Origin: Candidatus Omnitrophota bacterium
Lineage (GTDB): Bacteria > Omnitrophota > Gorgyraeia > Pluralincolimonadales > Pluralincolimonadaceae
Length of the DNA: 64,000 nt
NCBI GenBank assembly: GCA_041651455.1
Contig: JBAZJG010000002.1
Location: 49,431 to 113,430 of the forward strand
Direction: 5' to 3'
Both the position numbers and the translations under genes were made by a program. Positions 2,042-38,750 of the stretch are shown piece after piece. Under the pieces are notes generated by a model. That model was not told where the DNA came from, ran no database searches, and saw only the letters and a program-made list of their open reading frames with translations. Position 1 is the stretch's first letter. Every line of letters starts with the position of its first letter.

Positions 2042-2044
2042 CAA

Positions 2045-2290: not shown

Positions 2291-2301
2291 TATGAAAAAC
2301 A

Positions 2302-3555: not shown

Positions 3556-3576
3556 GGAAAACCGAAAGGAGTACTA

Positions 3577-9825: not shown

Positions 9826-9860
9826 TGGTGTATAATAAGGAAAAAAGGAGAGCGGCTAAG

Positions 9861-11296: not shown

Positions 11297-11309
11297 CAAA
11301 AATTCACCC

Positions 11310-11338
11310 TTGACGGAGCGTGCCTTAAGTGGTATATA
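11310..11338 (+). promoter_or_regulatory. Sigma70-type promoter: -35 TTGACG (11310-11315), 17-nt spacer, extended -10 TGgTATATA (11330-11338)
   Basis: Read from the sequence. The ATG at 11345 is 7 nt after the -10 box, implying a leaderless mRNA. Confidence 0.5.
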
Positions 11339-11344
11339 AAAGGT

Positions 11345-13810
11345 ATGCTCTGGTGCATACAGGTATATAACAGGAACAGGCGCGGCGCGGCCCTGATAAT
11401 GACGGTGGGGGTGCTCAGCATGCTCGTGCTCATAGGCGTCTCTTTCGCCGCCACCACGCAGGCCGTATACAGGCAGGCAAGGAATTACTCAAACTCCGTG
11501 AAGGCAAGATATCTCGCCGAAGCGGGTATAGCGAGGGCGGTGGCCGAGCTCCGCTGCGGAGCGGAAGGGGCGGTATCGGACGCGGTAGATACGCAGGCGG
11601 AGGGCTGGTATGCGGGATATTCCGCCGCTCTCGGCGGCGGCAGGTACCAGGTAAGCGGCACGGATTGCGCGGCGAGAATATATATAAACGATACCAACCC
11701 TAACCTCAGCGCCATGCTTGAAAACCTCACGGCGGCCCTCATATCCATGGGCGAGCCGCTTTCAGCCGGGGACGGCGCCGCGATAGTGTCGAACCGGCCG
11801 GCCGAAGGTTATATGAGCGAGCAGGAGGTGGAAGAGCCGTTCAGGCCCTACGTCACAGTCAGGGCGTTCCGGGATACGGCCGTCTATTCGAACGCTTCGC
11901 CTTTTCCGGCCGTACCGAGGGCGCCCGTAAACGTAAATACCGCTTCCAAGCCGGTGCTAAAGGCCGTCCTGTCCGGGATAGAAGCGACGCATACGTGCCC
12001 AAGGTGCGGAGGCGACGGGACGATATTCGCCGCAAGCGCGTGCCCGGATTGCGGAGGGACCGGCGGCCTCAGGATCACCCCCGCTGAAGCGGACGCGCTC
12101 GCGGACTACATAATCGCGAACCGCCCGTATTCGACATGGGGCCAATTCTACGGTTCGATAAAATCCTGCGCAAGTATGGGCGCGCAGGACGCGGACCTTG
12201 TGATGGCGAACGCGAACCCGAACGCGGGATTCGCGCCGGGGGCGCGCAATTACGGCTGGGCGTGCGGCGCGGGGCGTATCGGCAAGTATATAGACCCGGC
12301 GGACAACGGCCGCGGCCTTACAACCCACACGACGGAATTCTGTTTCAATTCGGGGGGATATTACGATATCGTCTCGACCGGGACGATAGAAGTGGGCGCG
12401 GGGACGGCCGCGGCTTCCAGGAGCATAAGGTCTGTCGTGAAGATATTCGATATATGGAGGCAGACCGCGCAGTCGGAATTCCAGTCGGGCGCCATGAGCG
12501 GCCTGCAGAGCTATCCGGAGCCGATAGGCGCGGGCATAGCGCCGGCGGCGTTCGACGGGCAGTTGATGCTCGCGACTAACGAGGACTCGTCCACCGCCAA
12601 TACGCTGCTGAGGGCAAGTTTCAACGACGGGCTCGACCTCGATTCGGCGGCGAATGCGAATATCGTCAGGGATCCCGCGAGCACCTGCTCCGTAGGGAGC
12701 GTCACTGATACGTCGGATCCGGGCAGTTTACTTCCGGACGGCGTATTCGTGAACAAAAAGTCCAACGATTACATATCGTTCATGGAGAGCTGGAGCGGCA
12801 CCTATAACATGGCGAAGGCGGACATGGGGACGCTTTCGCTCTGGGTCAAAGTCGTATCCGGCGGAGAGGTGTATTCGGGTATGAGCTTCTCCGGCTACGA
12901 GATAGATACGTACGGCAACGGCCACACGGACGGCGGCCCGCCGTGGGATTTTTCGCTGTTCGAGATACACCCGAGCGGCTTCATTCCCGGCTCTCCGTTC
13001 GGCGACTGGAACTGGTGGAGGCCCGGCTACGCGAACAGGACGGAGGTATGGTTCTACGAGCAGTGGGACGCGGCCCTGCCCGAGAGGCCTATCGGATTTA
13101 TCGGGTTCCAGGAGGTCGGAAGCGGCATCGGCGGAGGCAACGTCTCGCAGATAATGAGCACAGGCCGCGCGAGGAAGAACTGGGCGCCGGGCACGTGGCA
13201 CCATGTCGTCTTCACGTATGAATTGAGCAATCCAGCCGACCCGAACTGCATGACGGGGACGAAGAAGATATACATAGACGGCGCTGAGCCCCCGCATTAC
13301 GCCTATGATACGATATACCACCGGCTCAACGGGGACGTCCGCGACATTACCCTCGGCACGTCGGACATCAACAACAGCCATTCAGACGGCACCTATATAA
13401 TAGACGAGTTCAGGTCGGAGCACGCCTGCGCGACGGCCGCGCAGGTCATGGCGGAATTCGCTTCCGGCAGGTATTACGATAACAGCGACGCGGAATTCAC
13501 GTCGTCTGCGTTCAACGCGGGCACGGCGCGCATAGGCACGGTATCGTGGACGGAATACATGCCCGCGAGCGTCGCCGGAGGCGATATACAATTCGATATA
13601 GACAACGGCTCGGGGTGGCTCGGCGGGTATGCCGCGCGCAACAACCCCGCGGGATCCCCCGTTGGCGCGATGACCGCCGGGACGAACCTTATAAGGTACA
13701 AGGCGTATTTCGTGAATTCGGGCACGGGGCTTACCGATACCCCGGTCCTCGATGACGTGACCGTTACCTATTTAAAAAGGGCGGAAATACTGTACTCAAG
13801 GGAGGAATGA
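11345..13810 (+). CDS. GspK/PilX-like minor pseudopilin with a CxxC-x13-CxxC zinc-ribbon insert and a large concanavalin/LamG-like C-terminal region (821 aa)
   Basis: The N-terminus RRGAALIMTVGVLSMLVLIGVSFAA...ARYLAEAGIARAV resembles GspK. A helix-hairpin-helix PVNVNTASKPVLKAVLSGI as in GspK. Zinc-ribbon insert HTCPRCGGDG...CPDCGGTG. Confidence 0.6.
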   Translation: MLWCIQVYNRNRRGAALIMTVGVLSMLVLIGVSFAATTQAVYRQARNYSNSVKARYLAEAGIARAVAELRCGAEGAVSDAVDTQAEGWYAGYSAALGGGRYQVSGTDCAARIYINDTNPNLSAMLENLTAALISMGEPLSAGDGAAIVSNRPAEGYMSEQEVEEPFRPYVTVRAFRDTAVYSNASPFPAVPRAPVNVNTASKPVLKAVLSGIEATHTCPRCGGDGTIFAASACPDCGGTGGLRITPAEADALADYIIANRPYSTWGQFYGSIKSCASMGAQDADLVMANANPNAGFAPGARNYGWACGAGRIGKYIDPADNGRGLTTHTTEFCFNSGGYYDIVSTGTIEVGAGTAAASRSIRSVVKIFDIWRQTAQSEFQSGAMSGLQSYPEPIGAGIAPAAFDGQLMLATNEDSSTANTLLRASFNDGLDLDSAANANIVRDPASTCSVGSVTDTSDPGSLLPDGVFVNKKSNDYISFMESWSGTYNMAKADMGTLSLWVKVVSGGEVYSGMSFSGYEIDTYGNGHTDGGPPWDFSLFEIHPSGFIPGSPFGDWNWWRPGYANRTEVWFYEQWDAALPERPIGFIGFQEVGSGIGGGNVSQIMSTGRARKNWAPGTWHHVVFTYELSNPADPNCMTGTKKIYIDGAEPPHYAYDTIYHRLNGDVRDITLGTSDINNSHSDGTYIIDEFRSEHACATAAQVMAEFASGRYYDNSDAEFTSSAFNAGTARIGTVSWTEYMPASVAGGDIQFDIDNGSGWLGGYAARNNPAGSPVGAMTAGTNLIRYKAYFVNSGTGLTDTPVLDDVTVTYLKRAEILYSREE

Positions 13811-13813
13811 CAG

Positions 13814-14659
13814 ATGAGATACTGGATGATATCGATTGCGCTGGTGCTTATGGCCGTGAATACGGTATCGGCGGAGACGGGATCGGCTGTCGAGGGCTAT
13901 AGCCCCGCGGTTCCTCTGCCTTCAAAAATACCCGCGGAAGCCGGGATAAAGATATCGAAAGCCGCGATAGATTTTTCCGGCGGCGAATACCGCGTAAAAG
14001 TCAGCGGCAGCACCGGCCTTCCCGACAAGGCGAGGATATACGTCTTCCTGAAGAAGGGGGAGTTCCCGCTGGACTGCAAGATCGCGCGCGCGGAAGGAGG
14101 CAGGTTCTCGGCGGAGCTCGGGCCATTCCGGGTAAAACTTCCGATAGGCATATATATCGTGGAGGCGTCGCTGACGGCCGCGGAAACATCCGGCGCGAAA
14201 GACGTATATCGTCTCGTGGCCGGTAACCCCGAAGACGCGGTAAAAGAGGAAGAGTCCGGCAGGGCCGCGGTCTCGGCAAGCCTGGCTTCGGTCAGCGCGC
14301 TGTATGATGAACTCGAGCAGAAGCGCGCGCAATACAAGGACAGTTTCGACCCGGCTGAATGGAGGAGATGGTCGGAAGGGTGGGCTGTCCGCCTCAGGAA
14401 CGAACAGCAAACGGTCGATAACAACATAAAGCCGCTGTTGGCCGGCGATTATTCGGGCCCCGGACAGGCGCTTTCGCAGCTGATAAGGGACCTCGACCAG
14501 CTCGGAAGGGTGTATTCGTCCGAACTGGACGGTGGCGGCATCAAGGATGCCTACCCGTATGCCTTCAGGGACCCCGCGCAGCTCAGGGCGGTCATCAACG
14601 AAAGCCTTAAAAATAGCAAAAAAGTCGTATTGACAAACTGTGGCCTAAATGGTATATGA
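13814..14659 (+). CDS. Hypothetical secreted protein (281 aa), likely co-transcribed with the GspK-like gene
   Basis: Signal peptide MRYWMISIALVLMAVNTVSA; starts 4 nt after the previous stop. Confidence 0.45.
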   Translation: MRYWMISIALVLMAVNTVSAETGSAVEGYSPAVPLPSKIPAEAGIKISKAAIDFSGGEYRVKVSGSTGLPDKARIYVFLKKGEFPLDCKIARAEGGRFSAELGPFRVKLPIGIYIVEASLTAAETSGAKDVYRLVAGNPEDAVKEEESGRAAVSASLASVSALYDELEQKRAQYKDSFDPAEWRRWSEGWAVRLRNEQQTVDNNIKPLLAGDYSGPGQALSQLIRDLDQLGRVYSSELDGGGIKDAYPYAFRDPAQLRAVINESLKNSKKVVLTNCGLNGI

Positions 14660-14688
14660 ATGGTATACTAATGGTATTAATTGGTATA
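14650..14688 (+). promoter_or_regulatory. Four phased TGGTAT(A/T) boxes at 14650, 14661, 14672 and 14682 (10-11 bp period), ending in TGgTATAGTATAAT
   Basis: Direct repeats read from the sequence, sitting between the stop of the upstream gene and the PEP-CTERM gene. Confidence 0.5.
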
Positions 14689-14710
14689 GTATAATCCCAC
14701 ACGAAAGGAG

Positions 14711-15466
14711 GTGAAAAGATTGAAATATCTGATCGCATTGTTGGCATGCATGTTCGTATTCGCGGCTTCTCCCGAGGCCCACGCAGTCCTGAATTGGGCG
14801 GGAGAGGACACCGACGCGCCTTCTAACGCGCTGAACTGGAGCTACGGGTTCTCGCAGGGAGGCGACACGGTAGAGCTGGTCACGACGCCGGACGGCAACT
14901 GCGCGCCTTCGGTAACCACCGAAGCGCATTCGGGCGCCGAATCGGTCAAGTTCCACTGGACCCACACGAAGGACACGGTCAACTGGGGAACAAGGACAGC
15001 CCTGCAGGTTGGAAGCGACGGCAACGGCGGAGACAGCCTCGGCACCTCGATGATGTTCCACGATATCTCAACGGCGAGCAACCTGACCTTCTGGGTCAAG
15101 GGCGCGGTTGGCGGGGAACAGTTCAGGGTCGCCCTGAACAGCGGCTGGGAAGGATCGGCGTATCCGACCGACCAGACGAACCAGCTGCTCGTGAGCGGAG
15201 TGACAAGCTCATGGCAGCAGGTAGTGATGCCCCTGTCGGGATTCACGTACGATTTCCAGTACTCGGAGAATCCCGGCCCGATCGACCTGGCCCATTTGAC
15301 GGGCGTCAGGTTTGTCATAGAGTCGGGCGAGCCGACCGGCGAAGGGACGGTGTATATCGATGACATCTCGTTCGATACGCAGGCGGTCCCGGAACCCGCG
15401 AGCCTTCTTTTACTCGGCTCCGGCTTGAGCGGCATGTTGGTCTTTGTAAAGAAGCGTAAAGCATAA
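14711..15466 (+). CDS. Secreted CBM-like beta-sandwich domain protein with a C-terminal PEP-CTERM sorting signal
   Basis: Signal peptide. FWVKGAVGGEQFRVAL...IDDISF domain paralogous to those in the downstream glycoside hydrolase genes. C-terminus VPEPASLLLLGSGLSGMLVFVKKRKA. An alternative TTG start at 14720 has better Shine-Dalgarno spacing. Confidence 0.7.
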   Translation: MKRLKYLIALLACMFVFAASPEAHAVLNWAGEDTDAPSNALNWSYGFSQGGDTVELVTTPDGNCAPSVTTEAHSGAESVKFHWTHTKDTVNWGTRTALQVGSDGNGGDSLGTSMMFHDISTASNLTFWVKGAVGGEQFRVALNSGWEGSAYPTDQTNQLLVSGVTSSWQQVVMPLSGFTYDFQYSENPGPIDLAHLTGVRFVIESGEPTGEGTVYIDDISFDTQAVPEPASLLLLGSGLSGMLVFVKKRKA

Positions 15467-15521
15467 GCTCTCGTCCCCCAACGAGAAGGATCCGTCCGTC
15501 TCCCGAATCCTTTACGGCAGC

Positions 15522-15567
15522 TTGACAAATTCCCGCTATGTGGTATACATAAGGTATGGGTGGTATA
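15522..15567 (+). promoter_or_regulatory. Promoter for the regulator gene: -35 TTGACA (15522-15527), 16-nt spacer, TGgTATACA (15541-15549); second TGGTATATA box at 15561
   Basis: Read from the sequence. Confidence 0.45.
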
Positions 15568-15609
15568 TACCAATCCTAACCGAATATTGTATCTAAGAGG
15601 AGGCGGGAG

Positions 15610-16719
15610 ATGGACGGTAAGTTTGACAAGAAGAGGCCGATGCTCTTTTACCAGCAGTTCGCGGACATGATCAGGGACCAGATCAACAGGAACCGGTATA
15701 AACCGGGCGAATACATCCCTTCCGAAAGGCAGCTGAGCAAGGATTTCAAGCTCAACAGGATGACAGTCAGGAAGGGCATCGCGATGCTGGTGGAGGAAGG
15801 CCTGCTGCAGCCGTTCAGGGGGCGCGGGACTTTCGTTACGGGTTATCCCCAGCCCGGGAAGAAGACCCGGTCCAGGGATATCGGCTACGTCTTCATAAAG
15901 GATTTCAATTTTCCGCTTTCGAAGAATCCTTATTACACGGAGATCCTTGAAGGGGCGGAAGCCGAAGCTTCAAAACTGGATTATAAGTTCTTTCTAATGT
16001 CAGTAGATTACGATGAGAGCAAGCTCAGGGAGCTCGCGTCGCGCATAATCAGCGATAAGATAGGCGGGGCGGTCTTCGTAGGAAGGCTCGACGAGAAGGT
16101 CGAGGGGATAATAACCTCCCTCGCGAAACGCAAGATACCCGTCGTCGTCATAGACAGGTACGTGCCCTATAACGGCGTCAGCGCGGTGCTGACCGACAAC
16201 GCGAAGGGCGCGTATGACGCCGTGCAATACCTGGCTTCACTCGGCCACAGGGAAATAGGGTTCATAACGGGGCCGAAGTCGAACCAGGCGGTGCAGGAGA
16301 GGATCGGCGGATTCGAGAAAGCCGCCGGGGAACTCAAGCTCAAGGTGAAGGCGGAGCACACGGCCGAGAGCGACCTGCATATACACGGCGGATACCTCGC
16401 GATGAAGAAGATACTCGGGGCGCGCAAGTTCCCCACGGCGGTCTTCGCGATAAACGACGAGGCGGCGATAGGCGCGATGCGCGCGATACACGAGAAGGGG
16501 TTGAAAATCCCGAAGGACATATCGCTCGTAGGGTTCGACGACATCGAATGGGCCTCGCACACTATGCCCGGGCTTACTACCATCAAGATCTACAAAAAAG
16601 AGATCGGCGCCGCTGCCGTGAAGAAACTCACGGAGCAGATCGAGGATAAGGCCGCTCTACCGGTCAAGAACGTTATGCCGGTAAAGCTTGTCCTCAGGGA
16701 GAGCTGCGCCAATGCCTAA
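15610..16719 (+). CDS. Transcriptional regulator: GntR-type HTH N-terminus fused to a LacI/periplasmic-binding-protein-type sugar-binding domain
   Basis: HTH YIPSERQLSKDFKLNRMTVRKGIAMLVEEGLL. The C-terminal part has a LacI-like fold (VVVIDRY...AVFAINDEAAIGAMRAIHEKGLKIPKDISLVGFDD). Confidence 0.8.
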   Translation: MDGKFDKKRPMLFYQQFADMIRDQINRNRYKPGEYIPSERQLSKDFKLNRMTVRKGIAMLVEEGLLQPFRGRGTFVTGYPQPGKKTRSRDIGYVFIKDFNFPLSKNPYYTEILEGAEAEASKLDYKFFLMSVDYDESKLRELASRIISDKIGGAVFVGRLDEKVEGIITSLAKRKIPVVVIDRYVPYNGVSAVLTDNAKGAYDAVQYLASLGHREIGFITGPKSNQAVQERIGGFEKAAGELKLKVKAEHTAESDLHIHGGYLAMKKILGARKFPTAVFAINDEAAIGAMRAIHEKGLKIPKDISLVGFDDIEWASHTMPGLTTIKIYKKEIGAAAVKKLTEQIEDKAALPVKNVMPVKLVLRESCANA

Positions 16720-16737
16720 CATCTTGAGGAGATATAA

Positions 16738-19095
16738 ATGGGTAGTAAGCTGGATAAGTACGGTTATTTCGATAACGATAAGAAAGAATTCGTCATCACG
16801 AGGCCCGACACGCCTCTTCCGTGGATCAATTACCTCGGCTGCGAGCAGTATTGCGGCCTCATGTCGAACACCGCGGGCGGCTACAGCTTCTGGATAGACC
16901 CGCTCGAGAACAGGATACTGCGTTACAGGTATAATAATATCCCTTCCGACAGGGGCGGCAGGTACATCTACCTGAGGGACAACAAGTCCCGCGATTTCTG
17001 GTCCGCCTCGTGGCAGCCAGTCCTGAAAAGCCCCGATAAATACAAATACGAGTGCCGCCACGGCCTCGGGTATACCGTCATATCATCGGAATATTCCGGC
17101 ATAAAGACGAAGACATCATATTTCGTCCCGCTCGGGGAGAATCTCGAGATATGGATGATGGAGGTCGAGAACGCCTCGAAGAAAGACAGAGACCTTGACG
17201 TCATTTCTTTCGTGGAATTCTGCCTGCCGAACGCGCTCGAGGACATGACTAACTTCCAGGCGAACCTGAACACCGGCGAGACCGACTACGAGGACGGCAC
17301 CGTCTACAACATCAGCAAACACCGCGTTACGAAGGCGCATTTCTCGTTCTTTACCGTCGCCAACCAAAAGGTCAAGAGCTTCGACAGCAAACGCGACGAC
17401 TTCCTCGGGCCTTACGCCGACCTCAGCGCGCCGCGCGCCGTCGTGGAAGGCAAGGGCAAGAACGGCATCAGCTGCGGCTGGTCGCCGGTCGGGTCGCACA
17501 ATATAGGCCTTAAACTGAAGAAGGGCGAGTCGAAGACGGTGATATTCATCCTCGGCATCGCGCATTCGAGGAAAGAGGTCGACGGCTACAGGAAAAAATA
17601 TTCCACCAGGGCCAAAGTCCTCGACGCATTGAAAAACCTCAACGGGCACTGGGAGGAGAACCTCGACAAATTCAAGGTCGAGACGCCGGACGGCGACCTG
17701 GACCTGATGGCTAACATCTGGAACCAGTACCAGTGCCGCTCGACGTTCAACTGGTCGCGCTCGGCCTCGTACTATGAATCCGGCATCGGCCGCGGAATGG
17801 GTTTCCGCGATTCGAACCAGGACACGCTCGGTTTCGTGCATATGGTCCCGGAGAAGGTGAAGCAGAGGATAATCGACCTCGCCTCAACGCAGTTCGAGGA
17901 GGGCGACGCGCACCACCAGTATTCCCCGCTCACGAAGAAGGGCAGGGAGCGCGGATATTCCGACGACCACCTCTGGCTGATATATTCAGTCGCTGAATAT
18001 ATCAAGGAGACGGGAGATACCGGTTTTCTCTCCGAGACGATCCCTTACAATAATGATAAAAAAGGCACGCTGCTCGAACATCTCGAGAAGGCGATAGATT
18101 ATTCGGTCAAGAACACCGGGCCGCACGGCCTGCCGCTTTCCGGGTTCGCCGACTGGAACGACTGCCTTAACCTGCGCGGGCCTAACAACAAGGGCGAGTC
18201 GGTCCTGGTCGCGCAGATGCTCGTGCTGGCCGCGAAAGAGATGGCCGGCCTGCTGAAATTCGTGAAGGAGCCGAACAAGGCGGCGCGTTTCGACGAGATA
18301 GCGGAGCGCATGACGGAGAGGATAAACGAGGTTGCCTGGGACGGCGCGTGGTATGTCAGGGCTTACGACGACAACTCGAACGTGGTCGGCTCAAAAAAGA
18401 ACAAGGAAGGCAGGATATTCCTTGAGTCGCAGGGATGGGCCGTCATGTCGGGCGTGGCGCCGCAGGACAGGGCGATAAAGACGCTCGATTCGGTCGAAGA
18501 GCACCTTGCCACCGAGCACGGCGTCATCCTGCAGCAGCCGGCTTACAGCGATTACCATAAGAGTTTGGGCGACGTATCGTCATACCCGCCGGGGCTCAAG
18601 GAGAACGCCGGCATATTTTGCCATCCGAACCCGTGGGTCATGATAGCCGAATGCATCGCCGGGCGCGGCGACAGGGCGCTCTGGTATTACAAGGCGATAC
18701 TGCCGCCGTCTAAGGACCCGGATGTCCGCAGGGTAGAGCCGTATATCTATTGCCAGATGGTAGCCGGAAGGGACCATCCCGATTTCGGCGAGGGTAAGAA
18801 CTCGTGGCTTACCGGGACGTCGGCGTGGAATTTTGTCGCGGTCTCGAAGTATATAATCGGGATAAGGCCGGATTACGACGGACTTGTCGTAGACCCCTGC
18901 ATACCGGAAAAATGGGAGGGGTTCAGGGCGGCGAGGAAGTTCCGCAACGCCGTCTACGACATCTCGGTGGATAATCCCGGGCATGTCAGCAAGGGCGTAT
19001 CTTCGGTAAAGGTGGACGGGAAGTTCATAGAGGGGAACAAACTGCCCGTATTCAACGACGGCAAGAAGCATTCCGTCGAGATAACGATGGGCTAA
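16738..19095 (+). CDS. Cellobiose/cellodextrin phosphorylase (GH94)
   Basis: Near-collinear similarity to characterised cellobiose phosphorylases (FDNDKKEFVITRPDTPLPWINYLG, NTAGGYSF, IWNQYQC, SRSASYYESGIGRGMGFRDSNQD, GPHGLPL...ADWNDCLNL, NSWLTGTSAWNF, RPDYDGLVVDP). Confidence 0.9.
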   Translation: MGSKLDKYGYFDNDKKEFVITRPDTPLPWINYLGCEQYCGLMSNTAGGYSFWIDPLENRILRYRYNNIPSDRGGRYIYLRDNKSRDFWSASWQPVLKSPDKYKYECRHGLGYTVISSEYSGIKTKTSYFVPLGENLEIWMMEVENASKKDRDLDVISFVEFCLPNALEDMTNFQANLNTGETDYEDGTVYNISKHRVTKAHFSFFTVANQKVKSFDSKRDDFLGPYADLSAPRAVVEGKGKNGISCGWSPVGSHNIGLKLKKGESKTVIFILGIAHSRKEVDGYRKKYSTRAKVLDALKNLNGHWEENLDKFKVETPDGDLDLMANIWNQYQCRSTFNWSRSASYYESGIGRGMGFRDSNQDTLGFVHMVPEKVKQRIIDLASTQFEEGDAHHQYSPLTKKGRERGYSDDHLWLIYSVAEYIKETGDTGFLSETIPYNNDKKGTLLEHLEKAIDYSVKNTGPHGLPLSGFADWNDCLNLRGPNNKGESVLVAQMLVLAAKEMAGLLKFVKEPNKAARFDEIAERMTERINEVAWDGAWYVRAYDDNSNVVGSKKNKEGRIFLESQGWAVMSGVAPQDRAIKTLDSVEEHLATEHGVILQQPAYSDYHKSLGDVSSYPPGLKENAGIFCHPNPWVMIAECIAGRGDRALWYYKAILPPSKDPDVRRVEPYIYCQMVAGRDHPDFGEGKNSWLTGTSAWNFVAVSKYIIGIRPDYDGLVVDPCIPEKWEGFRAARKFRNAVYDISVDNPGHVSKGVSSVKVDGKFIEGNKLPVFNDGKKHSVEITMG

Positions 19096-19098
19096 CGC

Positions 19099-20223
19099 AT
19101 GAAGGAGACACAGATGAAGAAAGCGATGATCCTGGCAATGATACTGGCGGTACCGCGGTTGTGCATGGCCGCCGAATACGAGGCCGTATTCAAGGAGAAC
19201 ATGGGCAAGTACACATACGCGTACCCGTCCACGAGCACGATCGAGATAGCCGAGCAGGGCGCGAAGGACGGAAGGGCCTGCCTCATGCTTGTCCTCGACC
19301 ATAAGGAATACTCGGGCGGCGCTTTCGCGTTCAGCGACCCGATCGACGTTTCTTCGATAAAGGATACCGGCTCGCTCGAGTTCTGGATAAAGGGCGGCAA
19401 CGGCGGGGAGAGGCTTGAGGTCGCGCTCGTGAGCGAGCAGGCCGACGGCAAGAAGGCCGAGAGCGTGCTAAGCTTAAATTCCGTGAGCAGTGTCGACAAC
19501 AGGTGGAAGAAGGTAGAGATACCGCTGAAGCTCTTCCCGAAGAACGGCATCTACTGGGACGCGGATAAGGGCAAGGAGCTCCCGCTTGCGTTCGACTGGA
19601 AGAACGTGACCGAATTCAAGGTCCGGACGAGACCGACACAGGGCCAGGATGACATAAAGCTCTATTTCGACGACATCGTCTTCACGAAAGACGCGAAGCC
19701 GGGCGTCAACGCGCTTGTCGTGTTCGACGGGGCGTTCCCATCCTATACGTACGCGTATCCGGAGAGCGGAAGCAGGATAACCGTATCGGCCGGTGACGTA
19801 TTCGAGGGCAAGCCCTCGGCGAAGATATCGCTTAACGCGAAGGACTATTCGGGCGCCGCGTTCGCTTTCGGACCCGTTGACCTCAGCGGAATGCGCGAAG
19901 CGGGAGTCCTCGAGTTCATGATGAAGAGCGGCGCGGGCGGCGAGAAGGTGGAGATATGCCTCGTGCAGGCGGCAGAGCCGAAAGTCGAGACCGGCGTGAA
20001 CTTAAGCGGCATAAAACCGCTCACTACCGAATGGCAGAAATACGAGATACCGCTGAGCATGTTCCAGGACAGGGGCAAGTACTGGGACGAGGCCTCCAAG
20101 AAAGAGGTCGGCGCCGACGTGAAGAACTGGGACAAGATCGGCGAGATCAAGTTCAAGATAAGGAAGGACGAGAACAAAGAATGCTCCCTATACATAACGG
20201 ACGCAAAGTTCAGATTGCAGTAA
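19099..20223 (+). CDS. Secreted protein with two tandem CBM-like beta-sandwich domains
   Basis: Signal peptide; two copies of the LEFWIKGGNGGE...W.KVEIPL...YFDDIVF module. Confidence 0.6.
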   Translation: MKETQMKKAMILAMILAVPRLCMAAEYEAVFKENMGKYTYAYPSTSTIEIAEQGAKDGRACLMLVLDHKEYSGGAFAFSDPIDVSSIKDTGSLEFWIKGGNGGERLEVALVSEQADGKKAESVLSLNSVSSVDNRWKKVEIPLKLFPKNGIYWDADKGKELPLAFDWKNVTEFKVRTRPTQGQDDIKLYFDDIVFTKDAKPGVNALVVFDGAFPSYTYAYPESGSRITVSAGDVFEGKPSAKISLNAKDYSGAAFAFGPVDLSGMREAGVLEFMMKSGAGGEKVEICLVQAAEPKVETGVNLSGIKPLTTEWQKYEIPLSMFQDRGKYWDEASKKEVGADVKNWDKIGEIKFKIRKDENKECSLYITDAKFRLQ

Positions 20224-22478
20224 TAGCAGCGGCGGTATTGCTCTGTTCGTGCGCTAAGCAACCCGAGGTTGAATTCAAAGTGCGGGTTTTCGACGGTGAT
20301 ATGGCCGGCTGCCGCGATCATTGGGGCGACTCCTGGATAGGAAGCGGAAGCGGAAGCCGCGTCGACCGGGCCGACGACAAGATAAAACTGGCCGACCTTG
20401 GAAAAGAAGGGCCTGTCCCTGAGGGGCTTGCGCTCGATTTTTCCGGGGAGAACGTTAAGGGCGGCTGGTGGTCCGCTTGTCTGGCCCGGCCAATGTGGCA
20501 GGTGATGTCGCTCGATAATTACAGGGACAAGGGATACCTCGAGATCTGCGTGAAGGGCGCCTCCGGAGGGGAGGAGTTCATCATAGGGCTTGCCGACAAG
20601 AGCAAGCTTAAGAGGGAGGCGATGCTGCCTTCCTCCAGGTTCTTCGCGGTCACTACGCAATGGCAGCGCGTAAGGATACCCCTGTCGGAATTTGCCGCGG
20701 TAAAGCAAGCCCTCGATTTCGACAGGATATCGCACATCATAATCAGGAACGGGAACAAGCCGGGGAAATTCGCCTTTTACATTAAAGATGCGGCTTTCCG
20801 TTCGGAGCTCGTCGAGAAGTCCTACCCGCTCATCAAGGTGGACCAGGCGGGATACGCGCCGGCGGAAAAGAAGGTCGCCAAGGTATCCGGTATCGGGATA
20901 AAGGGCTACGGCGGCAGCAAATTCCGTTTGGTCGACGAGGATACGGGCAAGGAGGTCTTCTCCGGCAGGTTAAAGTACGTCTCGGGGCGCGATAGAGCGA
21001 CGGGCGACGCGGTTTTCGACGCGGATTTTACGGCGTTCGACAGGCCCGGGAGGTACAGGATAAGCGCAGGGAGCGCGGAGCTCAAGAGCCCCGTCTTTTG
21101 CATATCCGGTTCGGCATATGACACCGTGCTGCGCGATTCGCTGAGGATGTATTTTTACCAGAGGTGCGGCACGGCCCTTGAGGCCGGATGCGCCGGCAAA
21201 TGGACGCACGCCTCGTGCCATAACGACGACGCGTACCTGCTTTCCGACGAGACGAAAAAGATCGAGGCGGCGGGCGGCTGGCACGACGCGGGTGATTACG
21301 GGAAATATGTGGTCAACGGCGGCATAGCCGCGGGGACGCTGCTGGCGATATACGAGCTCCGTCCGGAGAACTTTTCCGACGGCCAGCTCGGGATACCGGA
21401 GAGCGGGAACTCCGTCCCCGATATCCTCGACGAGGCAAGATGGGAGATCGAGTGGTTCCTGAAGATGCAGAGGGAAGACGGCGCGGCCTGCCATAAGCTG
21501 GCCGGGGAATATGTCCCCGTCGACAGGTCGCCGGACCGGGACCAGGTAAAAAGGTTCATCATGGACATATCGACCCCTGCCACTGCGAACCTGGCCGCTG
21601 TCGCCGCTATAGCCTCGCGGACCTACGGCAAGCATGACCCGGTTTTTTCGAAGAGATGCCTGGATGCGGCCGAAAGGGCGTGGGCGTACCTGGAGTCCCA
21701 CCCTTCGAATTATCCGCCGAGGGGCTATTCCGATCCTGTTTTGGATAAGGGCGAAATTGACGGAGGCGATTACGGCGACGACCCGCAGGGAAAATGGACG
21801 CAGGGCGACAGGGACGAGAGGTTCTGGGCCGCCTGCGAGCTCTTCCGCGCGACGGGAAAAGACAGGTACCATGATTACATAAAAGCGAATTACGGGATAT
21901 TCAAGGCCGGCCACGCGATGAACTGGCAGCAGGTGCAGAACCTGGGCCTGTATTCATATTGCATGTCCGCGTCCGCCGATGCCTCGCTGAAGAAGGAGAT
22001 CATGAGGTCCCTCGGCAAATACGGCAAGGGCATATTGAAGGCCTCCCGCGCCAACGCTTACGGCAACGCGCTGCGCGGTTACGAGTATTACTGGGGCTCG
22101 AATACGGTAGCGCTGAATTACGGCGTCGACCTGATATACCTGTACGAGATGACCGGCGACCGCAGGTACAGGGACGCCGCGCTCGACCAGCTGCACTATA
22201 TACTCGGCAGGAACGTCTTCGGGCTGTCGATGGTAAGCGGCATCGGAGAGAAAAGTATAGAAAAATATTATCACACATGGTTTAATAATAGCGATTACGA
22301 CACATTGCCCCCGGGATTCATGGTCGGGGGGCCGAATGCCGATAATTTCAAGGTATCGCGGTATCCGGGGCGCTGCTACAAGAATGTCGGCTCCGATTTC
22401 ACCGTCGACGAGATAGCGGTAAATTACAATGCCCCGCTGGTCTTCGTATCGGGTTATTTCAAGGAGGATAAGAGATGA
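20181..22478 (+). CDS. GH9 endoglucanase (lipoprotein-like signal, N-terminal CBM-like domain, CelD_N Ig-like domain, GH9 catalytic domain)
   Basis: GH9 signatures GGWHDAGDYGKY and YYWGSN. The ATG at 20181 has a lipobox-like VLLCSC. The track's start at 19956 reads through the previous gene in another frame, and the real gene overlaps the upstream gene by 43 nt. Confidence 0.85.
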   Translation: MLPIHNGRKVQIAVIAAAVLLCSCAKQPEVEFKVRVFDGDMAGCRDHWGDSWIGSGSGSRVDRADDKIKLADLGKEGPVPEGLALDFSGENVKGGWWSACLARPMWQVMSLDNYRDKGYLEICVKGASGGEEFIIGLADKSKLKREAMLPSSRFFAVTTQWQRVRIPLSEFAAVKQALDFDRISHIIIRNGNKPGKFAFYIKDAAFRSELVEKSYPLIKVDQAGYAPAEKKVAKVSGIGIKGYGGSKFRLVDEDTGKEVFSGRLKYVSGRDRATGDAVFDADFTAFDRPGRYRISAGSAELKSPVFCISGSAYDTVLRDSLRMYFYQRCGTALEAGCAGKWTHASCHNDDAYLLSDETKKIEAAGGWHDAGDYGKYVVNGGIAAGTLLAIYELRPENFSDGQLGIPESGNSVPDILDEARWEIEWFLKMQREDGAACHKLAGEYVPVDRSPDRDQVKRFIMDISTPATANLAAVAAIASRTYGKHDPVFSKRCLDAAERAWAYLESHPSNYPPRGYSDPVLDKGEIDGGDYGDDPQGKWTQGDRDERFWAACELFRATGKDRYHDYIKANYGIFKAGHAMNWQQVQNLGLYSYCMSASADASLKKEIMRSLGKYGKGILKASRANAYGNALRGYEYYWGSNTVALNYGVDLIYLYEMTGDRRYRDAALDQLHYILGRNVFGLSMVSGIGEKSIEKYYHTWFNNSDYDTLPPGFMVGGPNADNFKVSRYPGRCYKNVGSDFTVDEIAVNYNAPLVFVSGYFKEDKR

Positions 22479-23071
22479 AAAAGGTCTTTTTGGCGGCCCT
22501 GATGCTGCTGCCGGCATCGGCCCTGTGCGCGGCGGTAGTTTACGGGATCTTCTCCGAGGAGATAGAGAAGGAAGGGACATATCATTATTCCTACCCGACG
22601 GACGGCACGAGCGAGATACGGACGACGAACATAGAGAAACATTCGGGGAATTATTCGATGAAGGTCACGCTTAACCCTTCCGGGTTTTCGGGCGCGGCTA
22701 TAGGTAATTACCCGCCGATGGACCTCGCGAAGTGCCGTGAAGCGGGCGCGCTGGAATTCTGGATAAAGGGCGAGAACGGCGGCGAAAAATGCGAGATACT
22801 GCTTCTCGACGACTCGAACAACGACGGCAACAAGACGGAAGCGGGAGTGGTCATAACGCCGAAGTATGTGACGATAACAAAAGATTGGCAGAAGGTCAGT
22901 ATCCCGCTGAAGGCGTTCCCGAACGACGGGCAGTACTGGGACGGCGGGAAGAACGTCAAGAATGCCGTCAATTGGAGCGAGATCGTGGAGTTCAAGGTCG
23001 CGAGCCGCCCCTATGACAAGAACGCCGGGTTCACGGTCTATATAGACGACGTGAACATAGTGATGCCATGA
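22475..23071 (+). CDS. Secreted single-domain CBM-like protein
   Basis: Signal peptide; LEFWIKGENGGEKCEILL...WQKVSIPL...YIDDVNI module. Confidence 0.6.
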   Translation: MKKVFLAALMLLPASALCAAVVYGIFSEEIEKEGTYHYSYPTDGTSEIRTTNIEKHSGNYSMKVTLNPSGFSGAAIGNYPPMDLAKCREAGALEFWIKGENGGEKCEILLLDDSNNDGNKTEAGVVITPKYVTITKDWQKVSIPLKAFPNDGQYWDGGKNVKNAVNWSEIVEFKVASRPYDKNAGFTVYIDDVNIVMP

Positions 23072-25950: not shown

Positions 25951-25979
25951 CGGAACTTTCCAGGTCGAAAACTGTCTAA

Positions 25980-26522
25980 ATGGGTGAAGAGAGCATAAAT
26001 TTCGATGAGCTGGTCCTTGAGCATAAGGACAAGGTCTTCAATTTGTGCTACCGTTTCCTCGGCAATTACGAGGAAGCCGACGATTGCGCGCAGGAGACCT
26101 TCGTAAAAGTATACCGCTCTTTGAAGGACTTCAGACGGGAGTCGTCCGTCTCGACGTGGATCTACAGGATAGCGGTAAATACCTGCAAGAACAGGGTCGC
26201 GTCGGCGCAGTACCGCCGCAGCAGGAACATGGTCCGGCTCGACGAGCCGAAAGAGACCGACGACGGCGCCAGGCCTGTGGAGATAGGCGACGAGAAGCTC
26301 TCCCCGGCGACGGAGGCCGACAGGAAGGAAAAGGGAGAGCTGATACAGGAAGCGATAGATTCCCTGCCGCGCGACCAGAAGTCGGTGGTCATATTGCGCG
26401 ATATCGAGGGGCTCTCTTATGAGGCAGTCGCCGAAGCGACGGGCCTGAACCTCGGGACCGTGAAGTCGAAGCTGGCGAGAGCCAGGCAGGAATTAAGGGA
26501 AAAACTGAAGGGGCTGGTATAG
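25980..26522 (+). CDS. RNA polymerase sigma-70 factor, ECF subfamily
   Basis: Region 2 (ETFVKVYRSLKDF...WIYRIAVNTCKN) and region 4 (SYEAVAEATGLNLGTVKSKLARAR) motifs. Confidence 0.85.
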   Translation: MGEESINFDELVLEHKDKVFNLCYRFLGNYEEADDCAQETFVKVYRSLKDFRRESSVSTWIYRIAVNTCKNRVASAQYRRSRNMVRLDEPKETDDGARPVEIGDEKLSPATEADRKEKGELIQEAIDSLPRDQKSVVILRDIEGLSYEAVAEATGLNLGTVKSKLARARQELREKLKGLV

Positions 26523-27272
26523 ATGGATAACAAAGACAAGAGGGATATGCTGCCGGAGGACGAATACCTGAAGCGGATGAGTTCCCTGCCGAAGGTAAAG
26601 GCCCCGGATGATTTCCTGCAGAAGGTGCGCGCGCGGATCGAAAAGCGCCCGCTCCGCGAAAGGATAATAGACGCCCTTTTTGTCCCGTTCAGGATAAAGA
26701 TACCGCTCGAGGTAGCGGCCGTGACGGCGATGCTGTTGCTCGTGATGTCCAGCCTCGATGTGGTCAAGCCGTCGAAGCAGCTTGCGTCCGTGCCGAAGTC
26801 GGATGTAGAGACGGCGGTCGTCGGGAAGGCGGACGATTATAAATATCAGGAATATGCGGATAAGGTCGAATCCGGCGCCGCGCCCGCGGAAAAACCTGCG
26901 GCAACAGAAGCCCTTAAAATGAAGAAGGTTGAATTCAAAGAATCCCGGTTGTGCGAGGGGGAGTCCTCCTCTGTGTGCGCGGATTCGGCGGAGCCGGCGC
27001 CCAGATCATCCAAAGGATTTTTCCGCGCGGACGTCATGCCCGCCATAACCGGATATATCAAGTCATCTCAGGGCGCCATTACCCATATAGAGACCGACAA
27101 GAACACCGGCCTGCCGCTGTATATAGACGCCGAGATACCCGCCGCTAACTATGAATCGTTCAAGAAGAAGCTGGAAGACCCCGCCATATCCCGCAATATT
27201 AAGATAGAGCCCATCCTGAAGGAAGCCCCGCAGGGAATCAATATAATCCAAATCCGCATTTTTATGATATAA
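26523..27272 (+). CDS. Putative anti-sigma factor (single TM)
   Basis: Adjacent to and coupled with the ECF sigma gene; short cytoplasmic N-terminus, one TM (PLEVAAVTAMLLLVMSSL), periplasmic C-terminus. Confidence 0.5.
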   Translation: MDNKDKRDMLPEDEYLKRMSSLPKVKAPDDFLQKVRARIEKRPLRERIIDALFVPFRIKIPLEVAAVTAMLLLVMSSLDVVKPSKQLASVPKSDVETAVVGKADDYKYQEYADKVESGAAPAEKPAATEALKMKKVEFKESRLCEGESSSVCADSAEPAPRSSKGFFRADVMPAITGYIKSSQGAITHIETDKNTGLPLYIDAEIPAANYESFKKKLEDPAISRNIKIEPILKEAPQGINIIQIRIFMI

Positions 27273-27292
27273 TCTATAAAACGGAGGTCTGC

Positions 27293-27874
27293 ATGAAAAA
27301 GCTGGCATTCGCGCTTTTAGCGCTGGCGGTATGTTCTTTCGCGTCGGACGCGTTTTCGCAGGAGTTCGAGGCGGATATGGTAAACACCACCCGGGGCGGC
27401 GTTTATAACGCCCATATCAACGTGGGCAAGGACAAGATGCGGATGCAGACCGACGATAATATCGTCATATCGAGGATGGATAAGGGCGTAGCCTGGATGC
27501 TCGTCCCGGCGCAAAAGATATATATGGAAGAGACGATAGACCCGAAGAACATGCAGGTCACTTCCGAGAAGGTCAACGGCGAGGTCAACAGGGAGCGCCT
27601 CGGCGCCGAGACGATAAACGGGGTAAAAGCCGACAAATATAAGGTCACCTATGATGTAAACGGCATGGAAGGCACGATGTACCAGTGGATAGCGCCGTCG
27701 TTGAACATGCCGGTAAGAAGCGAAGCCGGCGACGGGAGCTGGACGGTCGAATATACCAACATCAAAACGGGCCCGCAGGACGCGTCGCTCTTCGAGATCC
27801 CCGCGGGTTACAATAAAATGGATGCGTATAACATGGGCGACCTAATGAAAGGGATGACAAATGAAGAAGAATAA
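27293..27874 (+). CDS. Hypothetical secreted protein (193 aa)
   Basis: Signal peptide MKKLAFALLALAVCSFA; overlaps the GH3 start by 14 nt, so probably in the same transcript. Confidence 0.5.
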   Translation: MKKLAFALLALAVCSFASDAFSQEFEADMVNTTRGGVYNAHINVGKDKMRMQTDDNIVISRMDKGVAWMLVPAQKIYMEETIDPKNMQVTSEKVNGEVNRERLGAETINGVKADKYKVTYDVNGMEGTMYQWIAPSLNMPVRSEAGDGSWTVEYTNIKTGPQDASLFEIPAGYNKMDAYNMGDLMKGMTNEEE

Positions 27875-38749: not shown

Positions 38750-38750
38750 T

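Follow-up and report, generated by a model that had tools for sequence, protein, structure and literature searches.

The function of type IV-class filaments is set by their tip minor pilins. The closest known relative of the protein described here is GspK/XcpX, the tip minor pseudopilin of the type II secretion system (T2SS; PDB 5vtm_X, model 9a1f_T), but our target is about 2.5 times larger, with about 420 extra C-terminal residues (LamG plus beta-sandwich) and a predicted Cys4 knuckle insert. Unlike GspK/XcpX, it is encoded outside any pseudopilin operon, in a glycan locus with a dedicated secreted partner; five to six target paralogs are found per genome, and the target scores 33 bits against an NCBIfam cut-off of 130 bits.

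Minor pilins with lectin modules have been described in other filaments. Streptococcus sanguinis has one in PilC, a minor type IV pilin of modular build that carries a ConA-like lectin (PDB 7oa7/7oa8; PMC9934059). The target likewise combines a pilin moiety with a C-terminal ConA-like lectin/glucanase-fold module, but no sequence homology between it and PilC was detected. PilC differs in having Glu5 and a very short pilin moiety and in belonging to a monoderm type IV pilus locus. It is not the K subunit but owes its stability to the I-like PilA, and it binds sialylated and sulfated glycans of the host. The ETEC pair CofB-CofJ (PMC6048534) consists of a type IVb tip minor pilin with a lectin-type domain and a secreted partner, the C-terminal beta-domain of the pilin working with the co-encoded secreted protein. 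The likeness to our locus lies in the gene pairing alone; CofB-CofJ is of type IVb with a trimeric tip.

The Verru_Chthon cassette protein A (TIGR02600) of PVC-group bacteria has about 1300 aa and a GspK-like N-terminus and is found with three prepilin-type proteins. The H, I and J proteins of Omnitrophota match cassette proteins D, B and C, and the target N-terminus matches A, with 21.7 bits (cut-off 332.3) over residues 14-76 only; this is short of a full-length match, and the remainder of the target is unrelated in sequence to protein A. We know of no function for this cassette.

Two further systems are functional analogies only. PilY1/PilC of type IVa pili is a large adhesin shown at the filament tip on a minor-pilin complex (PMC9934059); PilVWX carry PilY1, which itself is no pilin, whereas the adhesin-like module of the target is fused to the K subunit itself. 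SusD and SGBPs of Bacteroidota polysaccharide utilisation loci (PULs) are per-locus binding proteins encoded beside enzymes, a regulator and an importer; they are lipoproteins acting with the TonB-dependent SusC, whereas the candidates here are a pseudopilin and PEP-CTERM proteins. Complete Omnitrophota genomes are reported to be devoid of the Sus/TBDR architecture (2026 preprint, 10.64898/2026.06.07.730766). Our search of the literature on Omnitrophota pseudopilins and on GspK combined with LamG and PULs found no account of an arrangement such as the one reported here, in which the gene at the head of a cellulose locus appears to encode an oversized GspK-type filament cap fused to a domain of the sugar-binding type.

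The K-like gene, its promoter and its family

The window (the whole 64-kb stretch of DNA analysed) contains the following features at the start of the K-like gene:

11310..11338, + strand, putative sigma-70-type promoter: -35 TTGACG (11310-11315), 17-nt spacer, extended -10 TGG-TATATA (11330-11338)
11345..13810, + strand, K-like CDS (GspK-type modular minor pseudopilin), 821 aa, stop TGA 13808-13810, from the ORF list

The reading frame given in the initial annotation agrees exactly with the ORF list, and its proposal that the gene has a sigma70 promoter of its own is supported by comparison of five orthologous loci (77-96% protein identity), in which the -35 TTGA and the string GTGGTATA.AA.AGGTATG are invariant and the spacer varies. 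The consensus promoter scan did not report the -35/-10 site at 11310-11338 because its rule demands T at position 6 of the -10 element; we kept the site because it is conserved across orthologs. The ATG lies 6 nt after the end of the -10 element and no Shine-Dalgarno sequence is present upstream at a usable distance, so that a leaderless mRNA start, as suggested initially, is plausible on sequence grounds. An alternative promoter may lie at 11362, where GGTATATAA occurs a second time; with a start at the next in-frame Met after it, the protein would lose its leader and Gly-1. Positions 10000-16000 gave no match to Rfam.

The family of the target comprises at least 969 clusters at E <= 1e-30 (50% identity clusters), mostly from Omnitrophota MAGs, and its members are almost all annotated as "hypothetical protein". 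The architecture of the target recurs in 69 close clusters as well as in this wider family, indicating that it is not due to chance.

The N-terminus and the GspK-like body

The N-terminal half of the protein has three features:

11345..11386, + strand, class III (prepilin-type) leader, aa 1-14 MLWCIQVYNRNRRG, predicted prepilin-peptidase cut after Gly14
11387..12544, + strand, GspK-like body, about aa 15-400: alpha1 helix to aa 71, pilin beta-sheet, inserted alpha-domain
11924..11971, + strand, helix-hairpin-helix (HhH) motif PVNVNTASKPVLKAVL, aa 194-209, Pfam T2SSK

The target begins MLWCIQVYNRNRRG|AALIMTVGVLSMLVLIGV, which reads as a class III signal, a short basic leader with Gly at its end and some 20 hydrophobic residues behind it. 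Of 58 family members, 55 have Gly14 (Gly-1), with K/R-K/R just before it, and positions +1 to +5 of the mature protein are [VI]-A-[LI]-[IL]-[LIM] in the family leader alignment. Position +5 is Met in the target and L, I, M, F, V or A across the family, never Glu, as is characteristic of K; the H, I and J genes of relatives carry G-F/L-T-L-I/V-E. Judging from this column conservation, a class III signal is likelier than a Sec/SPase I signal, and a prepilin-like cleavage is predicted as initially expected.

GspK was the best NCBIfam match for aa 13-92 (E 4e-8, aligned to profile positions 2-80), with weaker N-terminal matches to Verru_Chthon_A, PilV and PilX_N; against the GspK equivalog NF037980 the target reaches 33.1 bits and thus stays below the 130-bit cut-off. 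Pfam T2SSK (PF03934) scores 28.3 bits (gathering 24.2), covering profile positions 1-18 of 63 only, at the HhH motif named in the initial annotation, where N196, N198 and T199 are invariant in the family. A sequence-only profile search of the PDB gave marginal matches alone (ComEA HhH, E 0.0017; XcpK, E 0.019 over 19 residues), so fold comparison was needed. The AlphaFold2 model of all 821 aa (pLDDT 84, pTM 0.83) has the GspK fold, with pilin alpha1 and beta-sheet and an inserted alpha-domain carrying the HhH, and alpha1 continues unbroken for 57 residues after Gly14, as in pilins. Profile, fold, conserved Gly-1 and the lack of Glu5 together uphold the assignment of the N-terminus to the GspK-type tip minor pseudopilins.

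The C-terminal modules

The initial annotation described a C-terminal region of about 450 aa with concanavalin/LamG-like character. The predicted structure divides it into two units:

12755..13480, + strand, LamG/concanavalin-A-like jelly-roll, about aa 471-712, proposed ligand-specificity module
13481..13807, + strand, C-terminal beta-sandwich, aa 713-821, ending ...TPVLDDVTVTYL..., model strands 716-820 with pLDDT >90

Laminin_G_3 (PF13385) matches aa 606-701 with 23.7 bits, just below the gathering threshold of 27.6, and the YIDG (643-646) and DITLGT (667-672) motifs noticed earlier both fall within this match. In the structure comparison the closest folds were carbohydrate-binding domains, namely AbnA domain 4, CBM40 and the PilC lectin, in agreement with the initial description of this end as lectin-like. 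PA14 and CBM_4_9 are carbohydrate-binding modules, and these are found in place of LamG in the operon-encoded paralogs.

LamG is the most conserved part of the target among orthologs (91-94% identical, dN/dS 0.02-0.045) and the most divergent among paralogs (16-25% identity), whose GspK bodies are 45-50% identical. This pattern may be a signature of specificity. The C-terminal sandwich, to which no specific fold could be assigned, is mostly 45-60% identical (30-61%) to that of the dispersed members of about 800 aa and 26-40% identical to that of the members of about 1000 aa; the TPVLDDVTVTYL motif at the C-terminus is also present in operon-encoded K-like proteins.

Partner gene, cellulose locus and distribution of the paralogs

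A CDF transporter gene lies upstream of the K-like gene and a gene for a secreted (Sec-signal) protein downstream, as the initial annotation stated. The downstream features are:

13800..13805, + strand, Shine-Dalgarno sequence GGGAGG preceding the partner gene, within the 3' end of the K-like CDS, from the sequence
13814..14659, + strand, conserved partner gene encoding a Sec-signal protein of 281 aa, beta-sandwich at 46-136, four-helix bundle at 139-277
14711..15466, + strand, PEP-CTERM-anchored CBM11/CBM30-like protein, Pfam PEP-CTERM 26.1 bits (above gathering), CBM_11 and CBM30 sub-threshold
15610..30383, + strand, cellulose/cellodextrin utilisation genes, from Pfam, in the same order in loci L001, L002, L005 and L011

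The last of these encode a GntR-PBP regulator, a GH94 phosphorylase, CBM30 proteins, GH9, a GH39-like/CIA30 protein, an ECF sigma/anti-sigma pair and GH3. The partner start follows the K stop by 3 nt here and by 0 nt, or with overlap, in relatives, so the two genes are in all appearance translationally coupled. The initial description of the gene as an orphan does not hold: the partner adjoins K-like genes in almost every locus examined, and the K-like gene, the partner and the PEP-CTERM CBM protein together head the cellulose-utilisation locus, here and in orthologs.

That no other pseudopilin, GspF or GspE gene is adjacent was confirmed for the entire window, where searches turned up neither a pseudopilin gene apart from the target nor a gene for GspE/F or a prepilin peptidase. 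Scanning the same 64 kb by regex and HMM detected no canonical G-F-T-L-I-E prepilin and no further K-like gene, and returned the target and its partner only; the target is thus not placed after gspH-gspI-gspJ in a secretion/pilus cluster within the window. The partner pseudopilins are encoded elsewhere, as had been supposed, and the expected GspH/I/J set is present in the sister genome (93.8% nucleotide identity over 19 kb), which encodes H-I-J-K1-K2-K3 (H/I/J at 3277-4728 of L048) and three further dispersed K-like genes in cellulose, mannan-type and GH26/GH94 loci.

Paralogs of about 1000 aa fill the K slot of GspH-I-J-K operons (L006/L008, L009, L023, L025, L048), and more divergent members of 673-1045 aa are found in the same setting (L032, L037, L039-L041, L043, L044). 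Such operon paralogs lie directly 3' of the GspH-, GspI- and GspJ-like G-F-T-L-I-E prepilin genes in Omnitrophota and Auribacterota. Dispersed K-like genes are found in cellulose loci (the window, L001/2/5/11-15), in mannan-type loci (L004, L018, L024, L029-31; the L029 copy at 9845-12301) and beside GH116/GH94 (L007), GH2/GH5-CBM6 (L016), GH94/GH16 (L019) and GH26-CBM9/GH94 (L035), and one is outside any glycan locus (L010); this association with CAZymes is given as raw neighbourhood counts in CAZyme-rich genomes. A PEP-CTERM protein of about 200-270 aa is encoded within 3 kb of 18 of the 22 dispersed K-like genes, and the dispersed copies form a module of PEP-CTERM CBM protein, K-like gene and coupled secreted partner. 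A single H-I-J set was found against five to six K-like paralogs per genome.

Proposed function and alternatives

On balance, we regard the target as a locus-specific, glycan-binding tip of the GspK type with a lectin-like module, and the pilus-tip adhesin of the initial annotation is the best-supported of the readings that were weighed. The class III signal would insert the protein in the inner membrane and prepilin peptidase would remove the 14-residue leader after Gly14. The mature protein, being without Glu5, would have to be the top subunit, docked on a GspI-GspJ(-GspH) platform whose genes lie in another part of the genome, and would there nucleate the filament, with the LamG/ConA-like jelly-roll and the beta-sandwich binding a ligand at the filament tip. 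The gene would be co-transcribed and translationally coupled with that of the secreted partner. The cellulose/cellodextrin locus that it heads, together with the gene for a PEP-CTERM carbohydrate-binding protein, makes a beta-glucan-type polysaccharide the most likely ligand. A protein ligand is conceivable too, as LamG folds also bind proteins (neurexins, neurotoxin Hc). The K copies heading different polysaccharide clusters suggest interchangeable, substrate-specific tips, the K of each locus matching the filament to the substrate under degradation.

We also considered a wider scheme, speculative and in our estimate rather unlikely, in which Omnitrophota and related lineages without SusC/D-type systems would use one filament machine that combines a single GspH-I-J base with swappable K tips encoded in the polysaccharide loci. 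Each tip would have a different lectin module and would come with a secreted partner and a PEP-CTERM binding protein of its own. Once a glycan locus was induced, the filament would receive the tip suited to that substrate; it could catch polysaccharide chains and bring them to the cell surface or periplasm by retracting through the secretin. If true, this would be a pilus-based functional counterpart of glycan capture by Bacteroidota PULs, with a mechanism akin to DNA uptake by competence pili. In the main reading too, lectin-fused K caps spread over polysaccharide loci would be a simple route to several specificities with one machine, and they would give a testable handle on polysaccharide acquisition by Omnitrophota, an abundant, uncultured phylum in which outer-membrane glycan capture of the Sus type is reportedly missing. 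The family is large (at least 969 clusters) and unannotated, so a correct functional label would propagate widely.

Other roles can be imagined for a tip of this composition. The LamG and beta-sandwich modules might bind the exported proteins of the locus (CBM30 proteins, GH9, the partner) and drive their passage through the secretin of a T2SS, each glycan locus bringing its own secretion adaptor instead of an adhesin. This is somewhat unlikely in our view: the top structural neighbours (AbnA domain 4, CBM40, the PilC lectin) and the PA14 and CBM_4_9 modules of the operon paralogs all bind carbohydrates, and we know of no T2SS with substrate-specific K paralogs. Adhesion to prey or host is more doubtful still; here the lectin would bind cell-wall or capsule polysaccharides of other microbes, and the neighbouring glycoside hydrolases would digest prey or host glycans, not plant cellulose. 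A predatory or host-dependent way of life has been proposed for Omnitrophota, whose secretion/pilus loci, giant adhesin-like proteins and glycoside hydrolases have been tied to predation as a hypothesis (bioRxiv 10.1101/2023.11.21.568195; 10.64898/2026.06.07.730766), and a 3547-aa LamG-rich giant ORF is present in the window behind a secretin module (37880-42094). That ORF, however, is 31 kb from the K-like gene. The genes around the latter make up a coherent set for cellodextrin catabolism (GH9, CBM30, GH94 phosphorylase, GH3), and some paralogs are located in mannan-/laminarin-type sets with ABC sugar importers, as in ordinary polysaccharide foraging.

The protein might also act outside any filament, its N-terminus being a mere inner-membrane anchor or a Sec signal that signal peptidase I cleaves near SFA35; it would then bind or sense glycans for the locus in the periplasm or at the surface. 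The S-F-A at 33-35 fits the -3/-1 rule, no pseudopilin gene of the window lies near the K-like gene, and regulator and ABC/CAZyme genes adjoin, as would be expected for a sensor or binding protein. We consider the Sec/SPase I signal less likely because the putative -1 position is V, T, I or L in 22 of 58 members, against the class III Gly-1 in 55; the continuous alpha1 after Gly14 and the retention of the entire GspK fold, including the I/J docking surfaces, at 45-50% identity with the H-I-J-K operon paralogs likewise leave the non-filament role a low probability. The least credible alternative, to which we give almost no weight, is that the gene is left over from a pseudopilin operon, decaying or domesticated and without present function; the initial annotation had allowed for a domesticated fragment. 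The gene is isolated from other pseudopilin genes inside the window, but its 821-codon frame is full length and unbroken, and its dN/dS of 0.07-0.09 against four orthologs (dS up to 2) shows strong purifying selection and rules out a domesticated fragment. Moreover, partner, promoter and synteny are all conserved among the orthologs, hundreds of clusters share the architecture, and the gene is one of the five to six paralogs per genome.

The probable zinc-knuckle insert

One further feature interrupts the GspK-like body:

11996..12064, + strand, DnaJ-type double CxxCxGxG, aa 218-240, motif coordinates, sub-threshold match to Pfam DnaJ_CXXCXGXG

Both motifs of the zinc ribbon proposed initially are present (CPRCGGDG at 218-225 and CPDCGGTG at 233-240, with 24 aa from the start of the HhH motif to the insert), and the spacer has to be corrected from 13 to 7 residues (TIFAASA). 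Pfam PF00684 (DnaJ_CXXCXGXG) gives E 3.4e-4 and 21.3 bits against a gathering threshold of 32.7. The insert is probably a Cys4 zinc knuckle, as predicted from the motif; its cysteines could form disulfides instead, the protein being exported. A functional link to the adjacent CDF zinc transporter was considered and rejected: the transporter gene is a neighbour in the closest orthologs alone (L001, L011) and is not adjacent in L002 or L005. The insert is not peculiar to the target, being found at the same position in about half of the family, including H-I-J-K operon paralogs: two CxxC occur there in 33 of 69 family clusters and in none of the rest, and the strict double CxxCxGxG in 21. The AlphaFold2 model confidence at the CxxCxGxG insert is 66-84.

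Gene, putative promoter and immediate neighbours

The ORF list contains the 821-aa GspK-like (K-like) gene as the initial annotation had described it, and the CDF gene upstream and the secreted-protein gene downstream that were named there were both found. The features located are listed below.

Features at the K-like gene (window positions; aa, residues of its product)
10406-11296: CDF cation-efflux gene, upstream
11310-11315 and 11330-11338: putative promoter, -35 TTGACG, 17-nt spacer and TGG-TATATA, ending 6 nt 5' of the ATG
11345-13810 (+): K-like gene, 821 aa
aa 194-209: HhH motif PVNVNTASKPVLKAVL
aa 218-225 and 233-240: two CxxCxGxG motifs
aa 643-646: YIDG
aa 667-672: DITLGT
13814-14659: 281-aa Sec-signal protein (the partner), downstream
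14711-15466: PEP-CTERM protein with CBM11/CBM30-like similarity, after the partner

The gap between the CxxCxGxG motifs is 7 residues, not 13 as stated initially. The HMM/regex scan detected no canonical G-F-T-L-I-E prepilin encoded in the whole 64-kb window, in agreement with the earlier claim that no pseudopilin gene adjoins the K-like gene.

The promoter elements proposed initially are present and conserved in five orthologous loci, which all share the -35 TTGA and the block GTGGTATA.AA.AGGTATG but differ in the spacer; a consensus scanner omitted this promoter, since its rule allows only T as the final base of the -10 element. The K-like gene has no Shine-Dalgarno sequence at a usable distance 5' of its ATG, in contrast to the partner gene (GGGAGG 8 nt 5' of the ATG), and therefore the leaderless start, also proposed initially, is plausible but not proven.

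Two identical copies of GGTATATAA in direct orientation lie on either side of the start codon (11331-11339 and 11362-11370). With up to one mismatch this 9-mer is over-represented in the window (28 matches versus 11.7 expected) and may be a local extended -10 consensus or an operator. A 6-bp hairpin, GTATGC-N6-GCATAC (11343-11360), which orthologs keep only in part, contains the ATG. The palindrome GGTATATACC (15562-15571) lies just 5' of the GntR-PBP regulator gene.

A probable divergent GspK-type modular pseudopilin

The K-like protein is very probably a modular pseudopilin of the GspK type that bears a module with a LamG fold. The GspK-like N-terminus claimed initially was borne out: the best NCBIfam match is GspK (residues 13-92 to model positions 2-80, E 4e-8), although its 33 bits are far below the equivalog cut-off of 130 bits, and the second, Verru_Chthon cassette protein A, covers the N-terminus only. 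Pfam T2SSK is above the gathering score on the HhH, while Laminin_G_3 (606-701) and DnaJ_CXXCXGXG (213-240) narrowly miss their thresholds. Of the 58 family sequences aligned, 55 have Gly14, with K/R-K/R just before it and [VI]-A-[LI]-[IL]-[LIM] after it, and none of the 58 has Glu at +5; this conserved pattern points to a class III signal of the kind that K-type pseudopilins have. An SPase-I site at SFA35 also fits, but is not conserved, because the -1 residue is V/T/I/L in 22 of the 58 members.

AlphaFold2, run with 58 homologs, gave a confident model (mean pLDDT 84, pTM 0.83), with an unbroken helix at 3-71, a mixed alpha/beta part to about 400 and all-beta domains beyond. Structure prediction had been suggested in the initial annotation for the C-terminal part, which is all-beta in the model; Foldseek matched the model to neurotoxin Hc (E 2e-7) and to XcpK in the XcpGHIJK filament model 9a1f_T (E 1.4e-5, target-normalised TM 0.61). 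The last 109 residues form a beta-sandwich conserved family-wide, ...TPVLDDVTVTYL..., with no specific fold assignable to it.

By fold and signal the protein is of the GspK type, but it departs from canonical GspK in its curated equivalog score and in its location outside an H-I-J-K (GspH/GspI/GspJ/GspK-like) cluster, and it carries about 420 added residues; for these reasons we class it as a divergent, modular GspK-type protein, not as a GspK equivalog.

The word-indexed search detected 69 clusters (630-1380 aa), nearly all the named ones from Candidatus Omnitrophota MAGs, and the exhaustive profile search of 1.84 billion representatives detected 969 proteins at E <= 1e-30 and 3944 at E <= 1e-10, with some members from MAGs labelled Planctomycetota or Auribacterota. 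Two CxxC motifs stand at the zinc-ribbon position, 24 residues after the HhH start, in 33 of the 69 clusters (strictly CxxCxGxG in 21), and the pair is missing in 36; the insert is lineage-variable and no peculiarity of this protein. Overall dN/dS was 0.07-0.09 against four orthologs (96-77% protein identity), and most of the top 150 profile-search matches were full-length, which speaks against the 'domesticated fragment' suggested initially.

The taxon labels of some related records look inconsistent. Loci up to 94% nt-identical to the window belong to 'uncultured Planctomycetia bacterium (binchicken)' MAGs (GTDB records with this label: L012, L015, L017, L020, L026, L029, L035), and the remaining close relatives are all labelled Candidatus Omnitrophota.

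Operon and dispersed copies

We scanned 48 loci around family members by HMM/regex for prepilin, K-like and partner genes, with gene calls for a subset. Operon K-like members (about 1000 aa, plus more divergent ones of 673-1045 aa) come directly after three to five prepilin genes with G-F/L-T-L-I/V-E N-termini that match GspH, GspI/PilV and GspJ/T2SSJ models. In the window-related Omnitrophota clade the order is H-I-J-K1(PA14)-partner-partner-K2-partner-K3; the operon begins about 190 nt past the 23S-5S rRNA genes, and downstream of it lie fusA, yebC and ruvCAB. This neighbourhood (L048 1-4728; L008, L009, L023, L025) is a housekeeping one, not beside GspD/E/F.

Dispersed members of about 770-870 aa, including the window's gene, have no prepilin neighbour and are followed by a partner homolog at 0-3 nt or overlapping, L007 being the sole exception among the loci examined. 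Of the 22 dispersed loci scanned, a set to which a clade of about 720-740 aa and a few longer or truncated members also belong, 18 have a PEP-CTERM protein (200-270 aa) no more than 3 kb from K; at three of the other four, K starts about 200 nt or less from the contig end, so that the upstream region is invisible.

The MAG GCA_964650515.1 (93.8% nt identity to the window over 19 kb) has the ortholog L012, the operon L048 and the dispersed L029 and L035, that is, six K-like genes versus one H-I-J set seen, and the MAG of the 85% ortholog has the same inventory (L013, L024, L025, L038). Pseudopilins with which it would pair, which the initial annotation proposed to look for, are thus encoded in this sister MAG, and with its regular partner and several paralogs the gene is not the 'orphan' it had been called.

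Many partner-family proteins, not including the window's, have an additional domain of about 45 aa at the N-terminus (I-x-L-K-N-G-R-x-x-E-G-x-I...; L009 7717-8733, L006 3792-4784, L004 12431-13510) matching NCBIfam Lepto_7_Nterm (LA_0442/LA_0875 N-terminal domain). The 720-740-aa clade (L035 9926-12861, L038, L033, L034) lacks the usual partner; its next gene, with overlapping stop and start, encodes an unrelated protein of about 240 aa without a Pfam match, and the upstream PEP-CTERM CBM11 protein and GH26-CBM9/GH94 neighbours are kept.

Association with polysaccharide loci

The window's K-like gene and its orthologs (L001, L002/3, L005, L011-L015) stand at the head of a conserved cellulose-locus set of a GntR-PBP regulator, GH94 cellobiose/cellodextrin phosphorylase, CBM30 proteins, GH9 and a GH39-like/CIA30 protein, with GH3 added in the window. 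Other dispersed paralogs have different sets.

Gene sets at other dispersed K-like loci
L004, L018, L024, L029-31: mannan-type; GH113, GH130, DUF5060, GH2, ABC sugar importer, LacI
L007: GH94, GH116, Mann_GBD, ABC importer
L016: GH2, GH5-CBM6, LacI
L019: GH94, SBP, GH16
L035, L038: GH26-CBM9, GH94, GH2-like

One dispersed paralog (L010) lies outside any such CAZyme locus. Judged on the loci examined, the link to CAZyme loci is consistent and striking but short of statistical proof.

The listed start of the GH9 ORF (19956-22478, +) overlaps the preceding CBM30 gene, with an Arg-rich low-complexity beginning, and is probably too far upstream; the real start looks like an internal Met ahead of a lipobox-like ...AAVLLCSC.

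A candidate specificity module

In the cellulose-locus orthologs with 85% and 77% overall identity, LamG (471-712) is 94% and 91% identical to that of the window's protein, the GspK body 81% and 68%, and the C-terminal sandwich 90% and 83%. More distant cellulose-locus homologs have 44-48%, 49% and 50-58%, respectively, and paralogs from other loci 16-25%, 45-50% and mostly 45-60% (30-61%). The dN/dS minimum is in LamG (0.02-0.045), versus 0.12-0.16 in the GspK body. LamG is so the most constrained domain among orthologs and the most diverged between paralogs, a pattern one expects of a putative ligand-specificity module on a common scaffold. Operon paralogs have other carbohydrate-binding-type modules in its place (PA14 and, weakly, CBM_4_9).

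Functional model and alternatives

Beyond the observed architecture, fold, family membership, neighbourhoods and selection pattern, we lean towards a model of a locus-specific glycan-binding filament tip. The K-like protein would be inserted in the inner membrane, lose its 14-residue leader after Gly14 and, lacking Glu5, cap the GspI-GspJ(-GspH) complex from the rRNA-proximal operon and prime the filament. LamG and the beta-sandwich would come to lie at the filament tip, where they would bind a ligand of the beta-glucan type. Each K paralog would be expressed along with its own glycan locus; competition among them for one shared base would make the tips interchangeable and matched to the substrate. 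The pilus-tip adhesin proposed initially holds as the best-supported reading.

LamG folds also bind proteins and the cellulose-locus enzymes have Sec signals, consistent with a K tip that selects locus-encoded exoproteins for secretion instead of binding polysaccharide, which we consider rather unlikely. A role outside filaments, as a membrane-anchored or SPase-I-released glycan binder or sensor, has a small probability, since Gly-1 is conserved, alpha1 is of pilin length and the GspK fold is kept. Binding of prey or host cell glycans would match the hypothesis that ties the secretion loci and giant proteins of Omnitrophota to predation (bioRxiv 10.1101/2023.11.21.568195, 10.64898/2026.06.07.730766). 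We regard this reading as quite improbable, since the catabolic sets for cellodextrin, mannan and laminarin are coherent and speak for ordinary foraging. A decaying remnant is hardly credible, being contradicted by the dN/dS and conservation.

The filament-tip model accords with the general notion that effectors are displayed at filament tips by complexes of the H-I-J-K type (PMC9934059). Its proposed tip-borne lectin-like module would parallel that of S. sanguinis PilC, an experimentally characterised modular minor pilin with a glycan-binding ConA-like module, which models place at the tip of the pilus (PMC9934059). Lectin-bearing modular pilins are thus already known from PilC, and oversized GspK-like proteins are already catalogued as Verru_Chthon cassette protein A. 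In the searchable literature we found no description of the combination seen here, in which a lectin-fused K cap has 5-6 paralogs per genome and several of the copies, each with a dedicated secreted partner and a PEP-CTERM CBM protein, have moved to head different polysaccharide-utilisation loci. The protein class is recognisable; one base with many locus-specific lectin tips would be an unexpected and directly testable genomic logic.

Other features of the window

The first 1500 aa of a giant 3547-aa ORF (45001-55644, +) include three stretches of Laminin_G_3 along with regions that resemble sialidase-N and GH130. Upstream (37880-44880) are an AAA_22 (ExeA/MshM-like) gene, an unknown gene, a secretin (STN+Secretin_N+Secretin), a TPR/coiled-coil gene, a two-component system and a Rotamase_2 PPIase. 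Giant genes with this layout have been reported from Omnitrophota, with T2SS/T4P-like loci and class III signal genes nearby, but that work does not describe the combination of K caps and glycan loci (bioRxiv 10.1101/2023.11.21.568195, 10.64898/2026.06.07.730766). An IS200-like Y1 transposase gene (36868-37452, +) lies between a permease gene and the secretin module. Positions 1-4000 have a GC of 0.34-0.43 versus about 0.56 elsewhere and four ORFs of 188-254 aa without a Pfam match; parts of this low-GC stretch (3142-4144) are conserved in the related MAG loci L012 and L015.
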